DNA from: Escherichia phage ECML-134
Direction: 5' to 3' (one strand)
Length of the DNA: 64,000 nt
Sequence record: JX128259
Shown here: piece by piece, positions 30,697 to 34,712 of the stretch
Numbering within the stretch: the stretch's first letter is position 1
Layout of the letters: every line of letters starts with the position of its first letter
The notes under the pieces: generated by a model
Database searches by the model: none
Seen by the model: the letters and a program-made list of their open reading frames with translations, nothing else
What the model was told of the DNA's origin: nothing
Translations under genes and position numbers: made by a program

Positions 30697-32379
30697 TTAA
30701 ACCATTACAGTAAATCGACCAACTTTCTTCATTTGAAGATGCTGACCATATTCTTGCGGGTCATGGTCTTTATGCGAAATTATAAAGACATTAGTGTTTT
30801 TCATTGAATTTATAATATTAGCTACACCTTTAATACCTTCGGCATCAAATGACCCATCAAACACTTCATCGAGTATTAATGTACTAATACTAACACCAGA
30901 TACAATAGAAGCAATATCACGCCAAGTAAATAAAAGAGCAATATCAATTCTTGCTTTTTCACCTTCACTAAATGAAGCATAACTAAAATCTTCACGACCA
31001 CGGGATTTAATTGTCTCATTAAATTCTTCATCTAATGTAAACACATAATCCGCTTCCATTATTTTAAGATAATGGTTAATCTGCTTATTAAATAATGGAA
31101 TGTACTTTTTAATAATAGCACCTTTAATACCAGAATCTTTGAGCATATCAGTCAAAATTCCTCGGTGGTATTTTTCCATTACTAAATTAGTTTTTGTCTT
31201 AACAATTTTATCAAGTTCTTCTTGAAGCAGTGCTATTTCATCAGCATGGTCAATAAACTCAGAAGATGCTTTTTCTATAGCCGCTTTAACTTTTTTAGCT
31301 TTATCTACCGTTGTGATTAGAGATTGCTTTTTATTGCGAATATCATTTGCCAACGACTGTTGGGTTTTAATATTATCTCGGTATTCATCAACAAGAACTT
31401 TTAAATTATCACGATGTGTTGAAAGCTGTTCAAACGAATGCGTGCATTCAGAAACTTTATCTTTAATTTTAGAAACAACTTTATCACCGGAACTTAATTG
31501 TGACAAGCAGGTTGGGCATAATCCACCTTCGTGATACATATTAATGACTTTATTATACGAGTCAATTTTTGATTTAATTAAAACTGCTTCTTGACCGATT
31601 TTATTAAATGCATCAGTCGGGTCTTCATCTAAAACAATATTAACTAATCTTTCGTTAGCTTCTTCTATTTCCGATTTTAGCGTTCTAGCTTCTTTTGCCA
31701 AATCATCATACATATTTTGTAGACGAGTAAGGTTGTCACCTGTTAATTTTTTCTGGCGTTCAACGTTATCATTATATATTTTAATTTGTTGGATAATACT
31801 ATCTTTTTTAACATCAAGCACTTGGTTCTGCGAATTTAATTCACGTATTAGTGCTTTATTAAGCTTATCCATTTCAGCTAATGTTCCTACCTCAAGCAGG
31901 TCTTCCACAAGCTTTCTTCGCGCAGGGGTCGACAAACCCATGAAAGGGGTATACCCTGCTGTACCAAGGACAACAATCTGCTTGAAACTGGCATATGACA
32001 TTCCGATAAGCTGTTCAAATTCTGCTTGGAAATCTTTACTGCTGGCAGATTCATTAAGACGTGTACCGTTAACGGTGATTTCAAAAACGTTCGGTTTTTG
32101 TCCTCTTTTGATATAGTACTTTTTCTCATCATATTCCATCCACAGTTCAACTAAAAGTTCTTTCTTATTTGTGCTGTTTATTAATTGGCCTTTCTTTACA
32201 TCACGAAATGGCTTGCCAAAAAGCCCAAATGTGATGGCTTCTAACATAGTAGACTTACCACCGCCATTTCGTCCAGTAATAAGAGTTTTTTGAACCTTAT
32301 CTAATTGAATGTCAACTCCATTTTGACCAACTGACATTATATTTTTATATTTTACTCTATTAAGTTTAAATGATTTCAT
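30697..32379 (-). CDS. 46: recombination nuclease subunit, Rad50/SbcC-like
   Basis: 560-aa ORF, T4 gp46 length; Walker A GRNGGGKST. Confidence 0.9.
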   Translation of the reverse strand: MKSFKLNRVKYKNIMSVGQNGVDIQLDKVQKTLITGRNGGGKSTMLEAITFGLFGKPFRDVKKGQLINSTNKKELLVELWMEYDEKKYYIKRGQKPNVFEITVNGTRLNESASSKDFQAEFEQLIGMSYASFKQIVVLGTAGYTPFMGLSTPARRKLVEDLLEVGTLAEMDKLNKALIRELNSQNQVLDVKKDSIIQQIKIYNDNVERQKKLTGDNLTRLQNMYDDLAKEARTLKSEIEEANERLVNIVLDEDPTDAFNKIGQEAVLIKSKIDSYNKVINMYHEGGLCPTCLSQLSSGDKVVSKIKDKVSECTHSFEQLSTHRDNLKVLVDEYRDNIKTQQSLANDIRNKKQSLITTVDKAKKVKAAIEKASSEFIDHADEIALLQEELDKIVKTKTNLVMEKYHRGILTDMLKDSGIKGAIIKKYIPLFNKQINHYLKIMEADYVFTLDEEFNETIKSRGREDFSYASFSEGEKARIDIALLFTWRDIASIVSGVSISTLILDEVFDGSFDAEGIKGVANIINSMKNTNVFIISHKDHDPQEYGQHLQMKKVGRFTVMV

Positions 32380-32394
32380 TTTGTATCCAATTGT

Positions 32395-33249
32395 TCACAA
32401 TGAAGAAAATTCTTTAACTAAAGCCTGTAATGAAGCCTCTATTGGATATCCATTCTTAACTAACATTTTCCTAAACATCACATGTTTAGGACGATTATAT
32501 GATATCCACAATTCATACAATTTATCTTTATTATCCCAATGATAGCCTTTTCGTCTAGATGCTATATGAGCTTTTCTAATCTCCGGATTTTTCCAACTAG
32601 CAGCTACTGAATTTGATATAGCTATTTTATATTCAGGTTTTGATAAAGCAGCACGAACAGCCTTTTGGTGTTTAATTTTATTTTCTTCGTTATTAAACCA
32701 TTCCCTTGAAGCCATTGAAATTTTTTGTTTTGTTTTAAAATTATTTAATCTTTCTTTGTTATCTTTCCTATTTTTTGCTACTGAAAAATATTTTAATGCC
32801 CTTTCTCTAGCAGCATTTCTATTTTGCGGATTTGAATAATACTGTTGAAGCCTTTTTGATATTGTGTCACTTACATCTCGTTTTATAAAACTATATTCAG
32901 CAGCTATTAAATCAACTTCGGCTAAAGATAAATTTTTATATGTTTTTCCTGACATCATTCTATTTAAAGCATTTAGCATTTTTCCATTTTTACCTTTTGC
33001 TAATAAGAAGTGTGCTTTAAAATGATTAAAATGACTTAAATTAACTAAATTCCATGTAGATTTTAAATATTCAGGAAATATTGATTTAGGAAGCACGTGG
33101 TGTGCTTCCGTTTTACCTGGAGTTTTAACAGTTGAATTCATAGAAATAAAATTAATGTAAGACTTGGCGTCTTCTTCACTCAACGCTAATTTTTCAACTA
33201 ATTCCTTTATTAAAAATTCATCATTAATGTCAAGTTTAAAATTCTTCAC
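32395..33249 (-). CDS. free-standing HNH homing endonuclease
   Basis: 284-aa ORF; HNH motif EAHHVLPKS...NLVNLSH...H; begins with GTG; first ~12 codons copy the start of the preceding ORF. Confidence 0.7.
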   Translation of the reverse strand: MKNFKLDINDEFLIKELVEKLALSEEDAKSYINFISMNSTVKTPGKTEAHHVLPKSIFPEYLKSTWNLVNLSHFNHFKAHFLLAKGKNGKMLNALNRMMSGKTYKNLSLAEVDLIAAEYSFIKRDVSDTISKRLQQYYSNPQNRNAARERALKYFSVAKNRKDNKERLNNFKTKQKISMASREWFNNEENKIKHQKAVRAALSKPEYKIAISNSVAASWKNPEIRKAHIASRRKGYHWDNKDKLYELWISYNRPKHVMFRKMLVKNGYPIEASLQALVKEFSSL

Positions 33250-33461
33250 AAAAGATTCCTTTTAATGTATCTTTTAGACCATTCTATCATATCATCATAA
33301 TCTAAAAAGTATTCATCAAATTCAGCCATGCAAACAACACCTTGTGCTGTTTTTGATGTAATATAAATTATTCCAACATATCTAGAATCTTCTTCGGTAT
33401 AATCAATGTTTGCTATGAATTCATCATTAATGTCAAATGTCGAAAACTTCACAGTATGCAT
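33246..33461 (-). CDS. small hypothetical protein
   Basis: ORF track gives 33246-33509; start set to internal Met, a GTG start at 33452 is also possible; stop overlaps HNH GTG start (GTGA). Confidence 0.5.
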   Translation of the reverse strand: MHTVKFSTFDINDEFIANIDYTEEDSRYVGIIYITSKTAQGVVCMAEFDEYFLDYDDMIEWSKRYIKRNLL

Positions 33462-33696
33462 CCTTAATACAAGATACAGCCATATCTCGTAATGATTTAG
33501 GTGTGTCATTATCTAAAATGTTGAAGTTAAAAGATATAGCCCAGTCAGTGCAAACTGTAACCTTTTTAATATAATTATCTTCAACTTCTAGTGGTTCAAA
33601 CCAGTATTCAATAATTTCTTTATGACCAATATCATCTTTTACTTCGCATTCAAAATGCTGACTCATCATAACATTTTTAAATTCATCAAAAGTCAT
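33433..33696 (-). CDS. small hypothetical protein
   Basis: 87-aa ORF; 4 nt overlap with gene 47 stop. Confidence 0.55.
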   Translation of the reverse strand: MTFDEFKNVMMSQHFECEVKDDIGHKEIIEYWFEPLEVEDNYIKKVTVCTDWAISFNFNILDNDTPKSLRDMAVSCIKDAYCEVFDI

Positions 33697-34712
33697 TGTG
33701 TTGCCTCTACATATAGCTGATTTGCATATTGAATAAGTGCTTCACGGTCAGAATCAGTGATGTCTGGAATTGCATTAATGTATTCTTCCATCAATGTCTG
33801 AAGCGATTGAACTTCAACCTCTTCGCTGTCATCTGACTCGACAGAGTTATCAATCTTTGACACAACTCGTAATGAATGCACAACTTTCTCTAGTTCAGAT
33901 TCGAACTTCGTCAGATTTTTGTCTACTTCAGTTACTATAACACGTACTGATAGATTTGTAAAATCTTTATAGTCAATTTTTCCTTTAAATGGATAATGAA
34001 TTCTACGATGCCAGGTAGTGTTGTTTGGAATAAATTCCATTCGTTCTGTTTCTGTATCAAACATCCAGAACCCACGAGGGTCATTCTCGTCACCTGCAGT
34101 TAGTGTCCATGGTGTCCCAATATATCTGACGTTAGCAGCCTCAGAGATAGTATGGAAGTGACCAGACCACACCTCTTTATAAGTCTTAAGGAAATCAGGT
34201 TCAAGACCGTGAGATTTCATTCCTTTATAAAAATAAAATCCATTCAGTTCCCAGTGACCAACACAAAAAGAAGCAGATGAAGTTTTGATGTGCTCAAGAA
34301 TTTCACCAGTATTTTCTTCACACATCCAAGGAATTAAATCAATCAAACATCCGTCAAAATCTACTGTAGTAGGCTTATCATATACTTTAACATTAGGATA
34401 TTTAGCCAAAAGCTCAGTAGAAGCATTTGGAGTTAAAGTATTTTTAAAGTGCATATCATGGTTTCCTACAACAGTATGCAGGGTAATACCAGCATCATCA
34501 AGCATTTGAACTATTTCACGAGCAAACTCCATAGTTTTATGCGTGATTGCTTTTCGCACATCAAAAATATCGCCGTATTGAATCCAGGTAGTAATTCCAT
34601 TTTTCTTAGAATATTCTATCGCTTGCTTAATTCCATCCAACTGAATGGATTGAACCCACTCATCATCGGCTTTAACGCCTAGATGCCAATCACCTAAATT
34701 TAAAATTTTCAT
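33693..34712 (-). CDS. 47: recombination nuclease subunit, Mre11/SbcD-like
   Basis: 339-aa ORF, T4 gp47 length; phosphoesterase motifs GDWH and GNHD. Confidence 0.9.
   Translation of the reverse strand: MKILNLGDWHLGVKADDEWVQSIQLDGIKQAIEYSKKNGITTWIQYGDIFDVRKAITHKTMEFAREIVQMLDDAGITLHTVVGNHDMHFKNTLTPNASTELLAKYPNVKVYDKPTTVDFDGCLIDLIPWMCEENTGEILEHIKTSSASFCVGHWELNGFYFYKGMKSHGLEPDFLKTYKEVWSGHFHTISEAANVRYIGTPWTLTAGDENDPRGFWMFDTETERMEFIPNNTTWHRRIHYPFKGKIDYKDFTNLSVRVIVTEVDKNLTKFESELEKVVHSLRVVSKIDNSVESDDSEEVEVQSLQTLMEEYINAIPDITDSDREALIQYANQLYVEATQ

Follow-up and report, generated by a model that had tools for sequence, protein, structure and literature searches.

Endonuclease insertions that interrupt essential genes are known from T4-type phages. 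In Aeromonas phage Aeh1, mobE splits nrdA, and in T4, mobA lies between genes 39 and 60; in both cases, the host gene is divided into two functional polypeptides. For another set of endonucleases, namely SegF (gene 56), SegG (gene 32), SegB, and MobE (nrdB), cleavage sites and preferential inheritance have been shown experimentally. Intronless homing with co-conversion and immune targets belongs to the background set out in portions of the literature on these enzymes (PMC2988022, PMC2790892, PMC2330249). A start codon that overlaps the upstream ORF, as found for mobE (UAAUGA), mobA, and mobC, is a known mode of expression of free-standing T4 endonucleases (PMC2988022). A more distant parallel is provided by the mORFs of fungal mitochondria (Allomyces, Glomus), which form gene hybrids in atp6, atp9, cox2, and nad3, and in which an in-phase endonuclease ORF brings a foreign copy of a terminal gene segment, more divergent in DNA than in protein (PMC3630166).

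The element described here lies between genes 47 and 46 in a window of 64,000 nucleotides from Escherichia phage ECML-134 (JX128259), a Tequatrovirus. All features are encoded on the minus strand. Gene 47 (33693-34712), which specifies an SbcD/Mre11-like subunit and was identified from the ORF list and by its match to the annotated gene 47 of T4 and T6, forms the upstream edge of the interval. It is followed by gene 46.2 (33433-33696; Pfam T4_Y03C, E 2.4e-42) and by gene 46.1 (33246-33452), an intact ORF of 68 aa with a GTG start at 33452 and an AAGGA Shine-Dalgarno sequence at 33461-33465. Position 33461, at which the region singled out by the original prediction ended, is the last base of this Shine-Dalgarno sequence. 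The 46.1 protein is 100% identical to T4 gp46.1 and matches DUF5487 (PF17589, E 2.3e-49) over the full profile, positions 1-66 of 66. Next comes the endonuclease ORF (32395-33249), which, as originally described, has 284 aa and begins with a GTG that overlaps the TGA stop of 46.1 as GTGA. Gene 46 (30697-32379), which the ORF list and comparison with related phages show to be intact, encodes an SbcC/Rad50-like protein of 560 aa and closes the interval.

The window protein matches the profiles of PHROG 655 ('homing endonuclease', 2.7e-45) and phrog_12434 ('HNH endonuclease', 6.8e-16), and its copies in T6 and SHFML-11 are annotated in RefSeq as 'homing endonuclease'. Among the Mob-type enzymes (MobA-E, related to I-HmuI), it is nearest to MobD, to which tblastn aligns residues 47-281 with 30% identity (annotated mobD genes of RB3, RB5, and T4; E 2e-10). 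A word-indexed protein search returned 7 homologues. The HNH motif that had been recognized in the original prediction is borne out by the invariance of H50, H51, N67, H76, and H80 across two homologue alignments (22-43% identity); the motif reads EAHHVLPKSIFPEY-x5-WNLVNLSHFNHFKAH, a Mob-like HH...N...H...H arrangement. Sequence and profile searches of Pfam, NCBIfam, and PDB with the window protein or its profile gave no HNH match. An AlphaFold2 model contains a strand at residues 47-51, a second strand at 68-72, and a helix at 73-84, with pLDDT of about 87-90, which together with the invariant residues outline a putative beta-beta-alpha-metal catalytic core at codons 47-80 (33010-33111; TEAHHVLPKSIFPEY...WNLVNLSHFNHFKAH). 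The single-sequence AlphaFold2 model reached a pLDDT of 43 and was unusable, and a structure search with the predicted model did not confirm an HNH fold. Support for calling this predicted enzyme HNH comes from its family and its motif.

C-terminal DNA-binding modules of the NUMOD type are recognized in some of the homologues: I-HmuI_NUMOD-like (8.1e-5) and NUMOD1 profiles occur in three of six aligned homologues and NUMOD3 (3.7e-8) in one. The window protein has only W/Y-x-N-P/E-E/Q-N-like repeats, below the NUMOD threshold. Its protein cluster comprises 85 near-identical members, mostly of 284 aa, all of which begin with MKNFKLDINDEF. As with Mob-type genes, the window gene is free-standing and sporadic, adjoins a conserved gene of DNA metabolism, and overlaps the upstream ORF with its start. 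It is probably a free-standing, Mob-like HNH homing endonuclease gene with predicted activity, from a lineage that resides in the gene 47-46 interval of T4-type phages.

The distribution of the gene is in keeping with the homing-type character originally proposed for it. It is present in about 70 of 516 Tequatrovirus records and absent from T4 and most others, and homologous HNH genes occur in 10 of 162 Mosigvirus-like and 5 of 16 Gelderlandvirus records, all of these being counts over related, partly redundant genomes that are not phylogenetically corrected. At this single locus, presence and absence are polymorphic in all three groups, and comparison of the 46-47 interval with endonuclease-less phages both bounds the insertion and reveals an empty site, which is fixed to the base in T4 and in phages with the 'class B' form of gene 46 described below. 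In IMG/VR, the junction was found in only two T4-like contigs, both without the HNH gene. The literature searched describes the endonuclease only as part of 'other HNH' counts in T2, T6, and RB51, and no report of its nuclease activity, cleavage site, or preferential inheritance was found there.

According to the original prediction, the translation start of the endonuclease is an imperfect copy of the start of the small ORF upstream, as expected of an endonuclease that inserts beside a resident gene and borrows its signals. The borrowing is real, and the copying applies to a 19-nt core at nt +17 to +35 of the ORF; the ribosome-binding site, the GTG, and the first 16-18 nt are those of gene 46, and the insertion lies inside the 5' end of that gene, not beside a resident gene. 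From -20 to +18 relative to the HNH start, all 38 positions agree between the window and the T4 gene 46 start. This captured native start (33232-33263), which now heads the HNH ORF, consists of an AAGGA Shine-Dalgarno sequence at 33257-33261, a 7-nt spacer, the GTG at 33247-33249, and codons 1-6 (MKNFKL). Since the same ribosome-binding site, GTG, and 16-18 nt form the native gene 46 start in T4 and about 440 other HNH-less records, including class B phages, what the endonuclease has captured is the gene 46 start rather than a duplicate of the 46.1 start. The alignments show that the borrowed signals originally served, as a single copy, to start translation of gene 46, the essential gene downstream.

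A different origin might be suggested by the 45-nt repeat (78% identity, spacing 203 nt) that aligns in register across AAGGA, GTGAAG, and the 19-nt core: the endonuclease could have inserted beside 46.1, with the whole start region (ribosome-binding site, GTGAAG, and 12 codons) duplicated from 46.1 in the process. However, T4 and class B phages, which have no HNH gene, carry an identical ribosome-binding site, GTG, and following 10-12 nt at the head of gene 46. Beyond the 19-nt core, the likeness amounts to AAGGA, GTGAAG, and 4 of the 10 following nt, and HNH-less phages show all of it to the same extent between 46.1 and gene 46. This likeness of the starts (7/20, 6/6, and 4/10) is unchanged in HNH-less phages and so predates the cassette, which leaves duplication of the whole 46.1 start exceedingly improbable. 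On these alignments, the resemblance outside the core is not part of a duplication.

Alignment with T4 delimits an insertion of 870 nt (32362-33231), with exact anchors in SCS4 (equivalent to the window), T6, T2, RB51, and T4. The sequences are identical as far as GTGAAGAATTTTAAACTT, and agreement is regained at AATAGAG. In T2 and RB51, the insert measures 868 and 869 nt, respectively, and both of these copies are frameshifted. Gene 46 is interrupted within its 5' end, behind nt 16-18 (codon 5/6), and the inserted DNA comprises a stub, the remainder of the HNH gene, 15 nt of spacer that include a new Shine-Dalgarno sequence, and a replacement start for gene 46. In-frame fusion joins the HNH ORF to the Shine-Dalgarno sequence, GTG start, and six initial codons of gene 46, and with them the ORF acquires the GTGA overlap with 46.1 through which gene 46 is served by termination-reinitiation in T4.

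The cassette-borne substitute start (32362-32394) follows the TGA of the HNH ORF and its spacer, with a GGA Shine-Dalgarno sequence at 32386-32388, an ATG at 32377-32379, and codons 1-6, ATGAAATCATTTAAACTT (MKSFKL); it is from here that gene 46 would be translated in the window. The replacement is a near-synonymous copy of the six codons cut from gene 46, and GTGAAGAATTTTAAACTT and ATGAAATCATTTAAACTT agree at 14 of 18 positions. This second, imperfect duplication, which gives gene 46 a new start, was absent from the original prediction. Its first 15 nt equal the gene 46 start of Mosigvirus ST0, and the 3' ends of the SEA1 and SCS4 cassettes are identical at 58 of 66 nt, with only 43% identity between the proteins. 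Around the HNH, 46.1, and new gene 46 starts, no RNA structure that could occlude initiation was found, the folds being no better than those of shuffled sequence (z -1.28 to +0.76). A scan for dedicated promoters or terminators gave 14 sigma-70-like sites against 13.4 expected, and hence no signal, with T4 middle and late promoters lying outside the models of the tool. The C-terminal tail of the HNH protein was considered as a remnant of the 46.1 C-terminus and rejected, the likeness of EFMRKNL to YIKRNLL being too weak.

The 19-nt core, TTGACATTAATGATGAATT, occurs exactly at two sites on the minus strand, 33418-33436 and 33215-33233, as originally noted, and the N-termini of the two ORFs, VKNFKLDINDEF and VKFSTFDINDEF, are likewise confirmed. 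With up to three mismatches allowed, the observed count of this 19-mer was reached in 0 of 100 dinucleotide shuffles of the window; among 2000 shuffles of a 1.5-kb region, a repeated 19-mer appeared in none and a repeated 17-mer in one. Chance is thereby ruled out as its source. Copy 1 (33418-33436) is native to 46.1, where it forms codons 6-12 (F DINDEF), and is also found in T4 and other HNH-less phages; the TGA stop of gene 46.2 falls within it (TT-TGA-CAT...). Copy 2 (33215-33233) is a putative 46.1-derived stub that reads L DINDEF and has no counterpart in gene 46 of HNH-less phages. It is contained in the head of the HNH ORF, GTGAAGAATTTTAAACTTGACATTAATGATGAATT, and the match to 46.1 within that ORF is limited to nt +17 to +35 (19/19). 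In T2, copy 2 matches at 18 of 19 positions (GATATT).

The direction of copying is indicated by the 46.1 N-terminus itself. F6 and D10 are kept in five genera without this HNH gene (Gaprivervirus, Mosigvirus, Kagamiyamavirus, Dhakavirus, and Karamvirus, with FNLDDEF, FSIGDGY, and similar sequences), so that 46.1 appears to be the source of the stub. The same conservation speaks against the reverse course, in which DINDEF would be native to the endonuclease N-terminus and have been acquired from there by T-even 46.1. An HNH paralogue at another locus, in phage vb_GEC_SH_GT, does begin with MDINFKS, and the N-termini of homologues align from about residue 6-10, but that paralogue has only three codons in common, and the F2 and SEA1 endonucleases lack DINDEF. 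Acquisition by 46.1 is consequently very unlikely.

Both copies of the 19-mer stand at the same distance (+17 to +35) from their GTG starts, and 18-19 of 19 positions are kept among the HNH-positive records listed, all of which have at least 99% identity to a chimeric query. These features could point to a sequence kept twice for its function, either as a downstream element of translational coupling or as an autoregulatory operator comparable to those of I-TevI, as autorepression through homing-site-like operators is known from T4 intron endonucleases (PMC2988022). Such high retention is expected in any case, because the insert as a whole is 97-100% conserved. Furthermore, neither start has a stable RNA structure (z -0.47 and -1.28), and the F2 and SEA1 cassettes do without the 19-mer, making a functional role unlikely. 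We infer that the 19 nt that 46.1 and the HNH ORF have in common are a remnant of an earlier form of the cassette. The intermediate itself, in which 46.2 and a 46.1 stub fused to the HNH gene would stand without the 46.1 body, was sought with the chimeric query: among 50,697 phage records, all matches were in two pieces spanning 398 nt, and there were 0 matches in IMG/VR, 0 in metagenome contigs, and none among the members of the protein cluster.

Directly downstream of the insertion, gene 46 nt 18-66 form a recoded, 49-nt 'class A' patch (32314-32362; RVKYKNIMSVGQNGV) that is linked to the cassette and occurs in all HNH-positive T-even records listed. About 367 HNH-negative records carry the alternative class B sequence and about 68-75 carry class A; T4 has the class A patch and lacks the endonuclease. 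Class B is common to T-even, Mosigvirus, and Gelderlandvirus genomes that lack the HNH gene. The flanking sequence is fully mosaic, and no other SNP linked to the cassette was found in 1480 nt upstream or 1000 nt downstream. Linkage of the 49-nt patch in all HNH-positive genomes examined is what a co-conversion tract or a variant target site would produce, and the patch is probably an immune version of the target site.

Analogous patches accompany the homologues of two further genera, F2 (Mosigvirus-like) and SEA1 (Gelderlandvirus), whose endonucleases have 42-43% identity and occupy the same 47-46 interval. F2 and SEA1 differ there alone from their own HNH-less congeners. Gene 46 of F2 is 70% identical to that of ST0 at nt 30-60 and 97-100% identical from nt 120 on; SEA1 and S16 share 50-67% at nt 0-60 and 97-100% beyond. 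The start and first seven codons of the F2 HNH ORF are common to 46.1 of Mosigvirus ST0, after which the sequences diverge.

The T4-type site, with class A and no HNH gene, could alternatively be the ancestral empty site, into which a single illegitimate insertion occurred, the patch then being a local allele that is neither cassette-borne nor immune. The downstream flank of the cassette does equal T4 except for 2 nt (GGAGTT vs GGGATT), and HNH-less genera (EcS1, QL01, VR20) likewise have the gp46 variants K12 and Q19, so the patch alone is no proof of immunity. Nevertheless, T4-like patches recur in HNH-positive genomes of the two other genera (at nt 30-60, F2 is 93% identical to T4 and ST0 only 73%), and it is class B that HNH-less phages of all three groups have in common. 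An ancestral class A site is rather improbable on this evidence. The same linkage bears on whether the ORF is a decayed or domesticated remnant that no longer homes and is spread by ordinary T-even recombination. Frameshifted copies in T2 and RB51/RB68, the missing Pfam HNH match, and the fully mosaic flanks would all suit a remnant. Most copies, however, are intact at 284 aa and 98-99% identical, their putative catalytic residues are conserved, and tight cassette-patch linkage within mosaic flanks, repeated in three genera, is a signature of homing; loss of homing seems fairly unlikely.

The explanation that best accommodates the locus combines capture of the gene 46 start, a relic 19-mer, homing on class B gene 46, and immunity through the patch, and we regard it as probable. 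An earlier cassette would have replaced the body of 46.1, using the 46.1 start and first 12 codons, a form likened to the F2 homologue, which still uses the first seven codons of its own 46.1. An illegitimate join, in register with the gene 46 start, would afterwards have moved the cassette to a position behind an intact 46.1. The substrate of the enzyme would be the widespread class B form of gene 46, nicked or cut at about codons 11-20 (YQNIMSVGG). Repair templated by an HNH-positive genome would transfer both cassette and patch to the damaged genome, and the patch (Y[K/S]NIMSVGQ) would render carriers immune to their own enzyme. Genomes of the T4 type, with patch and no cassette, may be immune survivors of short-tract conversion or may have lost the cassette by deletion between the 18-nt repeats.

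The proposed element shares features with each of the described systems. Like Aeh1 mobE in nrdA and T4 mobA, it is an HNH gene lodged within the coding sequence of an essential gene for DNA metabolism in a T4-type phage, with the function of that host gene kept, but it cuts off six codons only, and these are duplicated, so that gp46 would be full-length. It departs from Mob-type genes in that it is not intergenic: it lies within the coding start of its target gene, is fused to six of its codons, and brings a replacement start, and its activity is a prediction. With SegF, SegG, SegB, and MobE it has in common a tight linkage to a short variant tract in an adjacent conserved gene, mosaic flanks, and a sporadic distribution among relatives; cleavage and preferential inheritance, experimentally established for those enzymes, are inferred here. 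The in-frame fusion to gene 46 codons 1-6 and the 14/18 duplicate start recall the fungal mORFs by analogy, not homology. The mORFs affect the C-terminus and encode LAGLIDADG or GIY-YIG enzymes, whereas the window element affects the N-terminus and translation start and encodes an HNH enzyme; moreover, its native fragment is reused as the endonuclease start and is not a dead remnant. Judged from comparative sequence data, the element is a putative sporadic, free-standing homing endonuclease gene with an unusual N-terminal capture-and-replace architecture; the empty site and the reproducibility of the duplication, on which the original prediction had made its reading depend, are both confirmed. 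It is not a fundamentally new kind of mobile element.

These comparisons provide a base-by-base view of how a selfish nuclease gene may invade the beginning of an essential coding sequence and leave the phage viable: the ribosome-binding site and first codons are taken over and a spare start is supplied. With them, the 'gene hybrid' architecture familiar from fungal mitochondria is extended to a phage gene and its N-terminus, and they explain the mis-annotation of the gene 46 start in many genome records. For the uncharacterised T2/T6 endonuclease, they offer a candidate target, gene 46 nt 30-60, to be compared between class B and class A, and they suggest that part of T4 gene 46 is a relic of the element. 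More tentatively, and with somewhat less than even confidence, an HNH lineage may have specialised on the first 70 nt or so of the Rad50-like gene 46 across at least three T4-type genera. Its module would comprise a captured start, a nuclease, a substitute start, and a recoded target, and would reuse the start of whichever resident gene it displaced (46.1 in F2, the gene 47 stop overlap in SEA1, and gene 46 in T6 and SCS4), the 5' end of T4 gene 46 being its footprint. If this is true, T4 would be naturally immune, and in crosses between T-even phages, the T6 or T2 enzyme would be a cause of marker exclusion at the 46-47 locus that has so far escaped notice.

The minus strand of the region, which is 100% identical at equal coordinates to Escherichia phage vB_EcoM_SCS4 (ON506924.1, Tequatrovirus), carries a-gt, 47.1, 47, 46.2, 46.1, a 284-aa HNH ORF and 46, in that order. 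Gene 47 (33693-34712) was placed from the ORF list and annotated T4/T6 relatives, and is followed by 46.2 (33433-33696), 46.1 (33246-33452; Pfam DUF5487, E 2.3e-49), the HNH ORF (32395-33249) and the essential gene 46 (30697-32379), all on the minus strand. The 46.2 gene is labelled 'XhlA hemolysin' in the T6 RefSeq record (NC_054907.1, 1705-1968, equal to 33433-33696 of the window); the analysis gave no support for a hemolysin role, and the Pfam family is T4_Y03C. As the original prediction had stated, the HNH ORF begins with a GTG that overlaps the 46.1 TGA as GTGA, and the two ORFs, with N-termini VKNFKLDINDEF and VKFSTFDINDEF, share a 19-nt core. Exact copies of this core, TTGACATTAATGATGAATT, lie at 33215-33233 and 33418-33436 and extend to a 45-nt repeat of 78% identity with copies 203 nt apart; no shuffle reached the observed count, and a repeated 19-mer arose in 0 of 2000 shuffles of the surrounding 1.5 kb.

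Searches of Pfam, NCBIfam and PDB sequences with the HNH ORF protein gave no match. It matches PHROG 655 ('homing endonuclease') over its full length (E 2.7e-45) and phrog_12434 ('HNH endonuclease') over residues 14-132, and the annotated mobD of T4, RB3 and RB5 is 30% identical by tblastn. Alignments of homologues at 22-43% identity, among which I-HmuI-like NUMOD, NUMOD1 and NUMOD3 modules occur, reveal invariant H50, H51, N67, H76 and H80. An AlphaFold2 model built from six sequences places strands at 47-51 and 68-72 and a helix at 73-84 (pLDDT ~87-90), a predicted beta-beta-alpha order; structure searches brought no confirmation of the fold. The protein is accepted, at the level of family and motif, as a putative Mob-like HNH homing endonuclease. 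A 9-bp-stem inverted repeat, GGAAGCAC-N3-GTGCTTCC (33089-33109), lies exactly over the codons of the putative catalytic TEAHHVLP motif and scores as terminator-like on the plus (antisense) strand. Some Tequatroviruses carry paralogous Mob-like endonucleases (~31% identity) at other loci (vb_GEC_SH_GT, locus L006, 1501-2337; Ozark, locus L007, 1492-2331), one following the gene for an NTP pyrophosphohydrolase, the other in the nrdD-nrdG interval; these too overlap the stop of the gene upstream.

Aligned with T4, which lacks the HNH ORF, the window shows a single clean 870-nt insertion. In T4, the 46.1 stop overlaps the gene 46 GTG, and gene 46 opens with GTGAAGAATTTTAAACTT followed directly by AATAGAGTAAAATAT; the window retains AAGGA-N7-GTGAAGAATTTTAAACTT and then continues into GACATTAATGATGAATT and the remaining HNH ORF. 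The original prediction held that the ribosome-binding site and start had been copied from the preceding gene; instead, positions -20 to +18 of the HNH start agree with the start of T4 gene 46 at every base (38/38), and the true copy of 46.1 is confined to +17 to +35 (19/19). The endonuclease has thus taken over the start of the downstream essential gene 46, with its Shine-Dalgarno sequence, GTG and opening six codons. The similarity of the captured start to that of 46.1 (7/20, 6/6, 4/10) is unchanged in phages without the HNH gene, so this likeness between two coupled starts predates the cassette and reflects no duplication. The captured start brings the endonuclease a termination-reinitiation overlap with 46.1, and free-standing T4 endonucleases are known to be expressed from such overlapping starts (PMC2988022). 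RNA folding of all three starts (HNH, 46.1 and new gene 46) was no better than that of shuffles, and a promoter scan found no enrichment.

The cassette also supplies gene 46 with a replacement start. After the HNH TGA, 15 nt containing GGA lead into ATGAAATCATTTAAACTT (MKSFKL), a 14/18 copy of the captured start (MKNFKL), and the sequence then rejoins T4 at AATAGAG. The upstream start of gp46 is taken to be real because its first 14 residues are conserved, the pattern MK.FKL(N/K)(R/K)V.Y.NIMSVG being kept across seven genera with synonymous variation. Many Tequatrovirus records annotate an internal ATG (codon 15) as the start instead of the GTG at the 46.1 stop overlap; the positions compared are ~2004 and 2046 in loci L020-L025, and the start in the window is 32379. 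Over its first 15 nt, the new start is identical to that of gene 46 in Mosigvirus ST0. From Shine-Dalgarno to codon 19, the cassette end matches its Gelderlandvirus SEA1 counterpart at 58/66 nt, despite only 43% identity between the SCS4 and SEA1 endonucleases. In a 290-aa endonuclease variant from Logan contigs (protein P0017), the ORF has one T fewer near its 3' end (window ~32380-32410) and so terminates in ...AAA-TGA. Its stop overlaps the new gene 46 ATG as ATGA, an arrangement by which translation of gene 46 would be coupled to that of the endonuclease.

The endonuclease lineage is present in three genera, and in each the differences between HNH-positive genomes and their HNH-less congeners fall almost entirely within the opening ~66 nt of gene 46: F2 and ST0 are 70% identical at nt 30-60 and 97-100% from nt 120 on, and SEA1 and S16 are 50-67% identical at nt 0-60 and 97-100% beyond. 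The HNH-linked patches are T4-like, F2 matching T4 at 93% over nt 30-60, against 73% for ST0. HNH-less Tequatrovirus genomes carry two gene 46 alleles: class B, ...AAACTAAACCGAGTTAGGTATCAAAATATAATGTCAGTAGGTGGAAATCCTATT (encoding RVRYQNIMSVGGNPI), resembles HNH-less ST0 and S16, and class A, ...AAACTTAATAGAGTAAAATATAAAAATATAATGTCAGTTGGTCAAAATGGGATT (encoding RVKYKNIMSVGQNGI), occurs in T4, Yersinia PYps phages and others. Junction queries of ~516 records, which are not phylogenetically independent, returned ~367 class B, ~68-75 class A without the cassette and ~70 HNH-positive, and all HNH-positive records listed are class A. Across 13 genomes, the linked tract is a 49-nt patch only (32314-32362) with mosaic flanks; among variable sites up to 1480 nt upstream and 1000 nt downstream, no others co-segregate with the cassette. 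In all three genera, HNH-positive alleles differ from negative ones at codons 12 (Q to K or S), 17 (GTR to GTT) and 19 (G to Q); a caveat is that endonuclease-less genera can have K12 and Q19 too.

The 19-nt core encodes part of a 46.1 segment, F-x-[IL]-x-D-[EG]-[FYW], whose F6 and D10 are invariant in Gaprivervirus, Mosigvirus, Kagamiyamavirus, Dhakavirus and Karamvirus copies with no adjoining HNH gene. T4 46.1 carries it as well. The segment thus belongs originally to 46.1, and the HNH ORF holds the copy. A 42%-identical endonuclease stands between 46.2 and 46 in F2 and in nine further Mosigvirus-like records, all of them lacking 46.1. F2 and ST0 DNA is ~97% identical through 46.2 and the first seven codons of 46.1, sharing ATGAC.AAGAC.GATTATGAAA (MTKTDYE) before F2 diverges into the endonuclease. 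The F2 endonuclease thus replaced the 46.1 body and kept its start, a direct precedent for a 46.1-endonuclease fusion. The T-even cassette may once have been F2-like, headed by the start and 12 codons of T-even 46.1; gene 46 nt 16-18 would later have been joined, illegitimately and in register, to codon 6/7 of the fused ORF, putting the cassette behind an intact 46.1. The postulated intermediate, 46.2 followed by a 46.1 stub fused to HNH, was not found in phage records, IMG/VR, metagenome contigs or the endonuclease cluster; the IMG/VR and metagenome scans gave almost no matches.

In SEA1, Melville and three other Gelderlandvirus records, a 43%-identical endonuclease lies directly between 47 and 46, where S16 has 46.1 and STML-198 has nothing. 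This interval holds 46.2 and 46.1 in T-even phages, only 46.1 in S16 (locus L015, 774-896) and neither in STML-198 (locus L016, 690), where the gene 47 stop overlaps the gene 46 GTG. S16 46.1 is annotated from an internal ATG, and a GTG overlapping the gene 47 stop yields a full-length homologue. Copies of the endonuclease are decaying in T2 (locus L017, LC348380.1, 1501-2353), with an 868-nt insert, a frameshift into two ORFs and one substitution in the 19-mer (GATATT), and in RB51/RB68 (RB51, locus L018, 1501-2369), with an 869-nt insert frameshifted to a 208-aa truncated product. Phage Ac3 (locus L019, OK040907.1, 1501-3851) matches RB51 at 100% as far as the HNH GTG; starting there, synonymous recoding affects the HNH region and gene 46 (~74% nucleotide identity; GC up from 0.29 to 0.45-0.48). 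The two translate identically over gene 46 and the first ~177 HNH-frame codons, neither has an intact HNH ORF, and the Ac3 record looks engineered or chimeric.

Beyond the insertion point, captured and substitute starts, linked patch, sporadic distribution and decaying copies seen in these genomes, a mechanism can be proposed. The endonuclease would nick or cut class B gene 46 around codons 11-20, the cassette and patch would be copied in by recombinational repair from a co-infecting HNH-positive genome, and the patch would protect carriers. T4-type genomes could stem from a short conversion tract that took in the patch and left out the cassette, or from deletion of the cassette between the two starts containing TTTAAACTT. 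With the cassette, class A ends in GGAGTT; without it the end is GGGATT, which fits a slightly shorter tract. The original concept, an endonuclease borrowing the expression signals of a resident gene, survives with a different donor, and it had overlooked the second duplication at the substitute gene 46 start and the linked patch.

In sequence and lifestyle, the element counts among the Mob-type free-standing HNH homing endonuclease genes. The T2, T6 and RB51 endonuclease was tallied as 'other HNH' in 2010 (PMC2993671). RefSeq labels the gene 'homing endonuclease', and the literature search found no characterisation of it. It stands out by its architecture: the cassette lies within the beginning of an essential coding sequence, whose first six codons are fused in frame to the endonuclease, and it brings a replacement start of its own. 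Comparable cases are nrdA in phage Aeh1 and genes 39/60 in T4, both split by endonuclease genes. Closest by analogy are the mORF 'gene hybrids' of fungal mitochondria, in which an endonuclease ORF lies in phase with atp6, atp9, cox2 or nad3 and brings a foreign duplicate of the host gene's C-terminus (PMC3630166). The cassette introduces no new principle, and offers specialists in phage mobile elements a neat, testable case.
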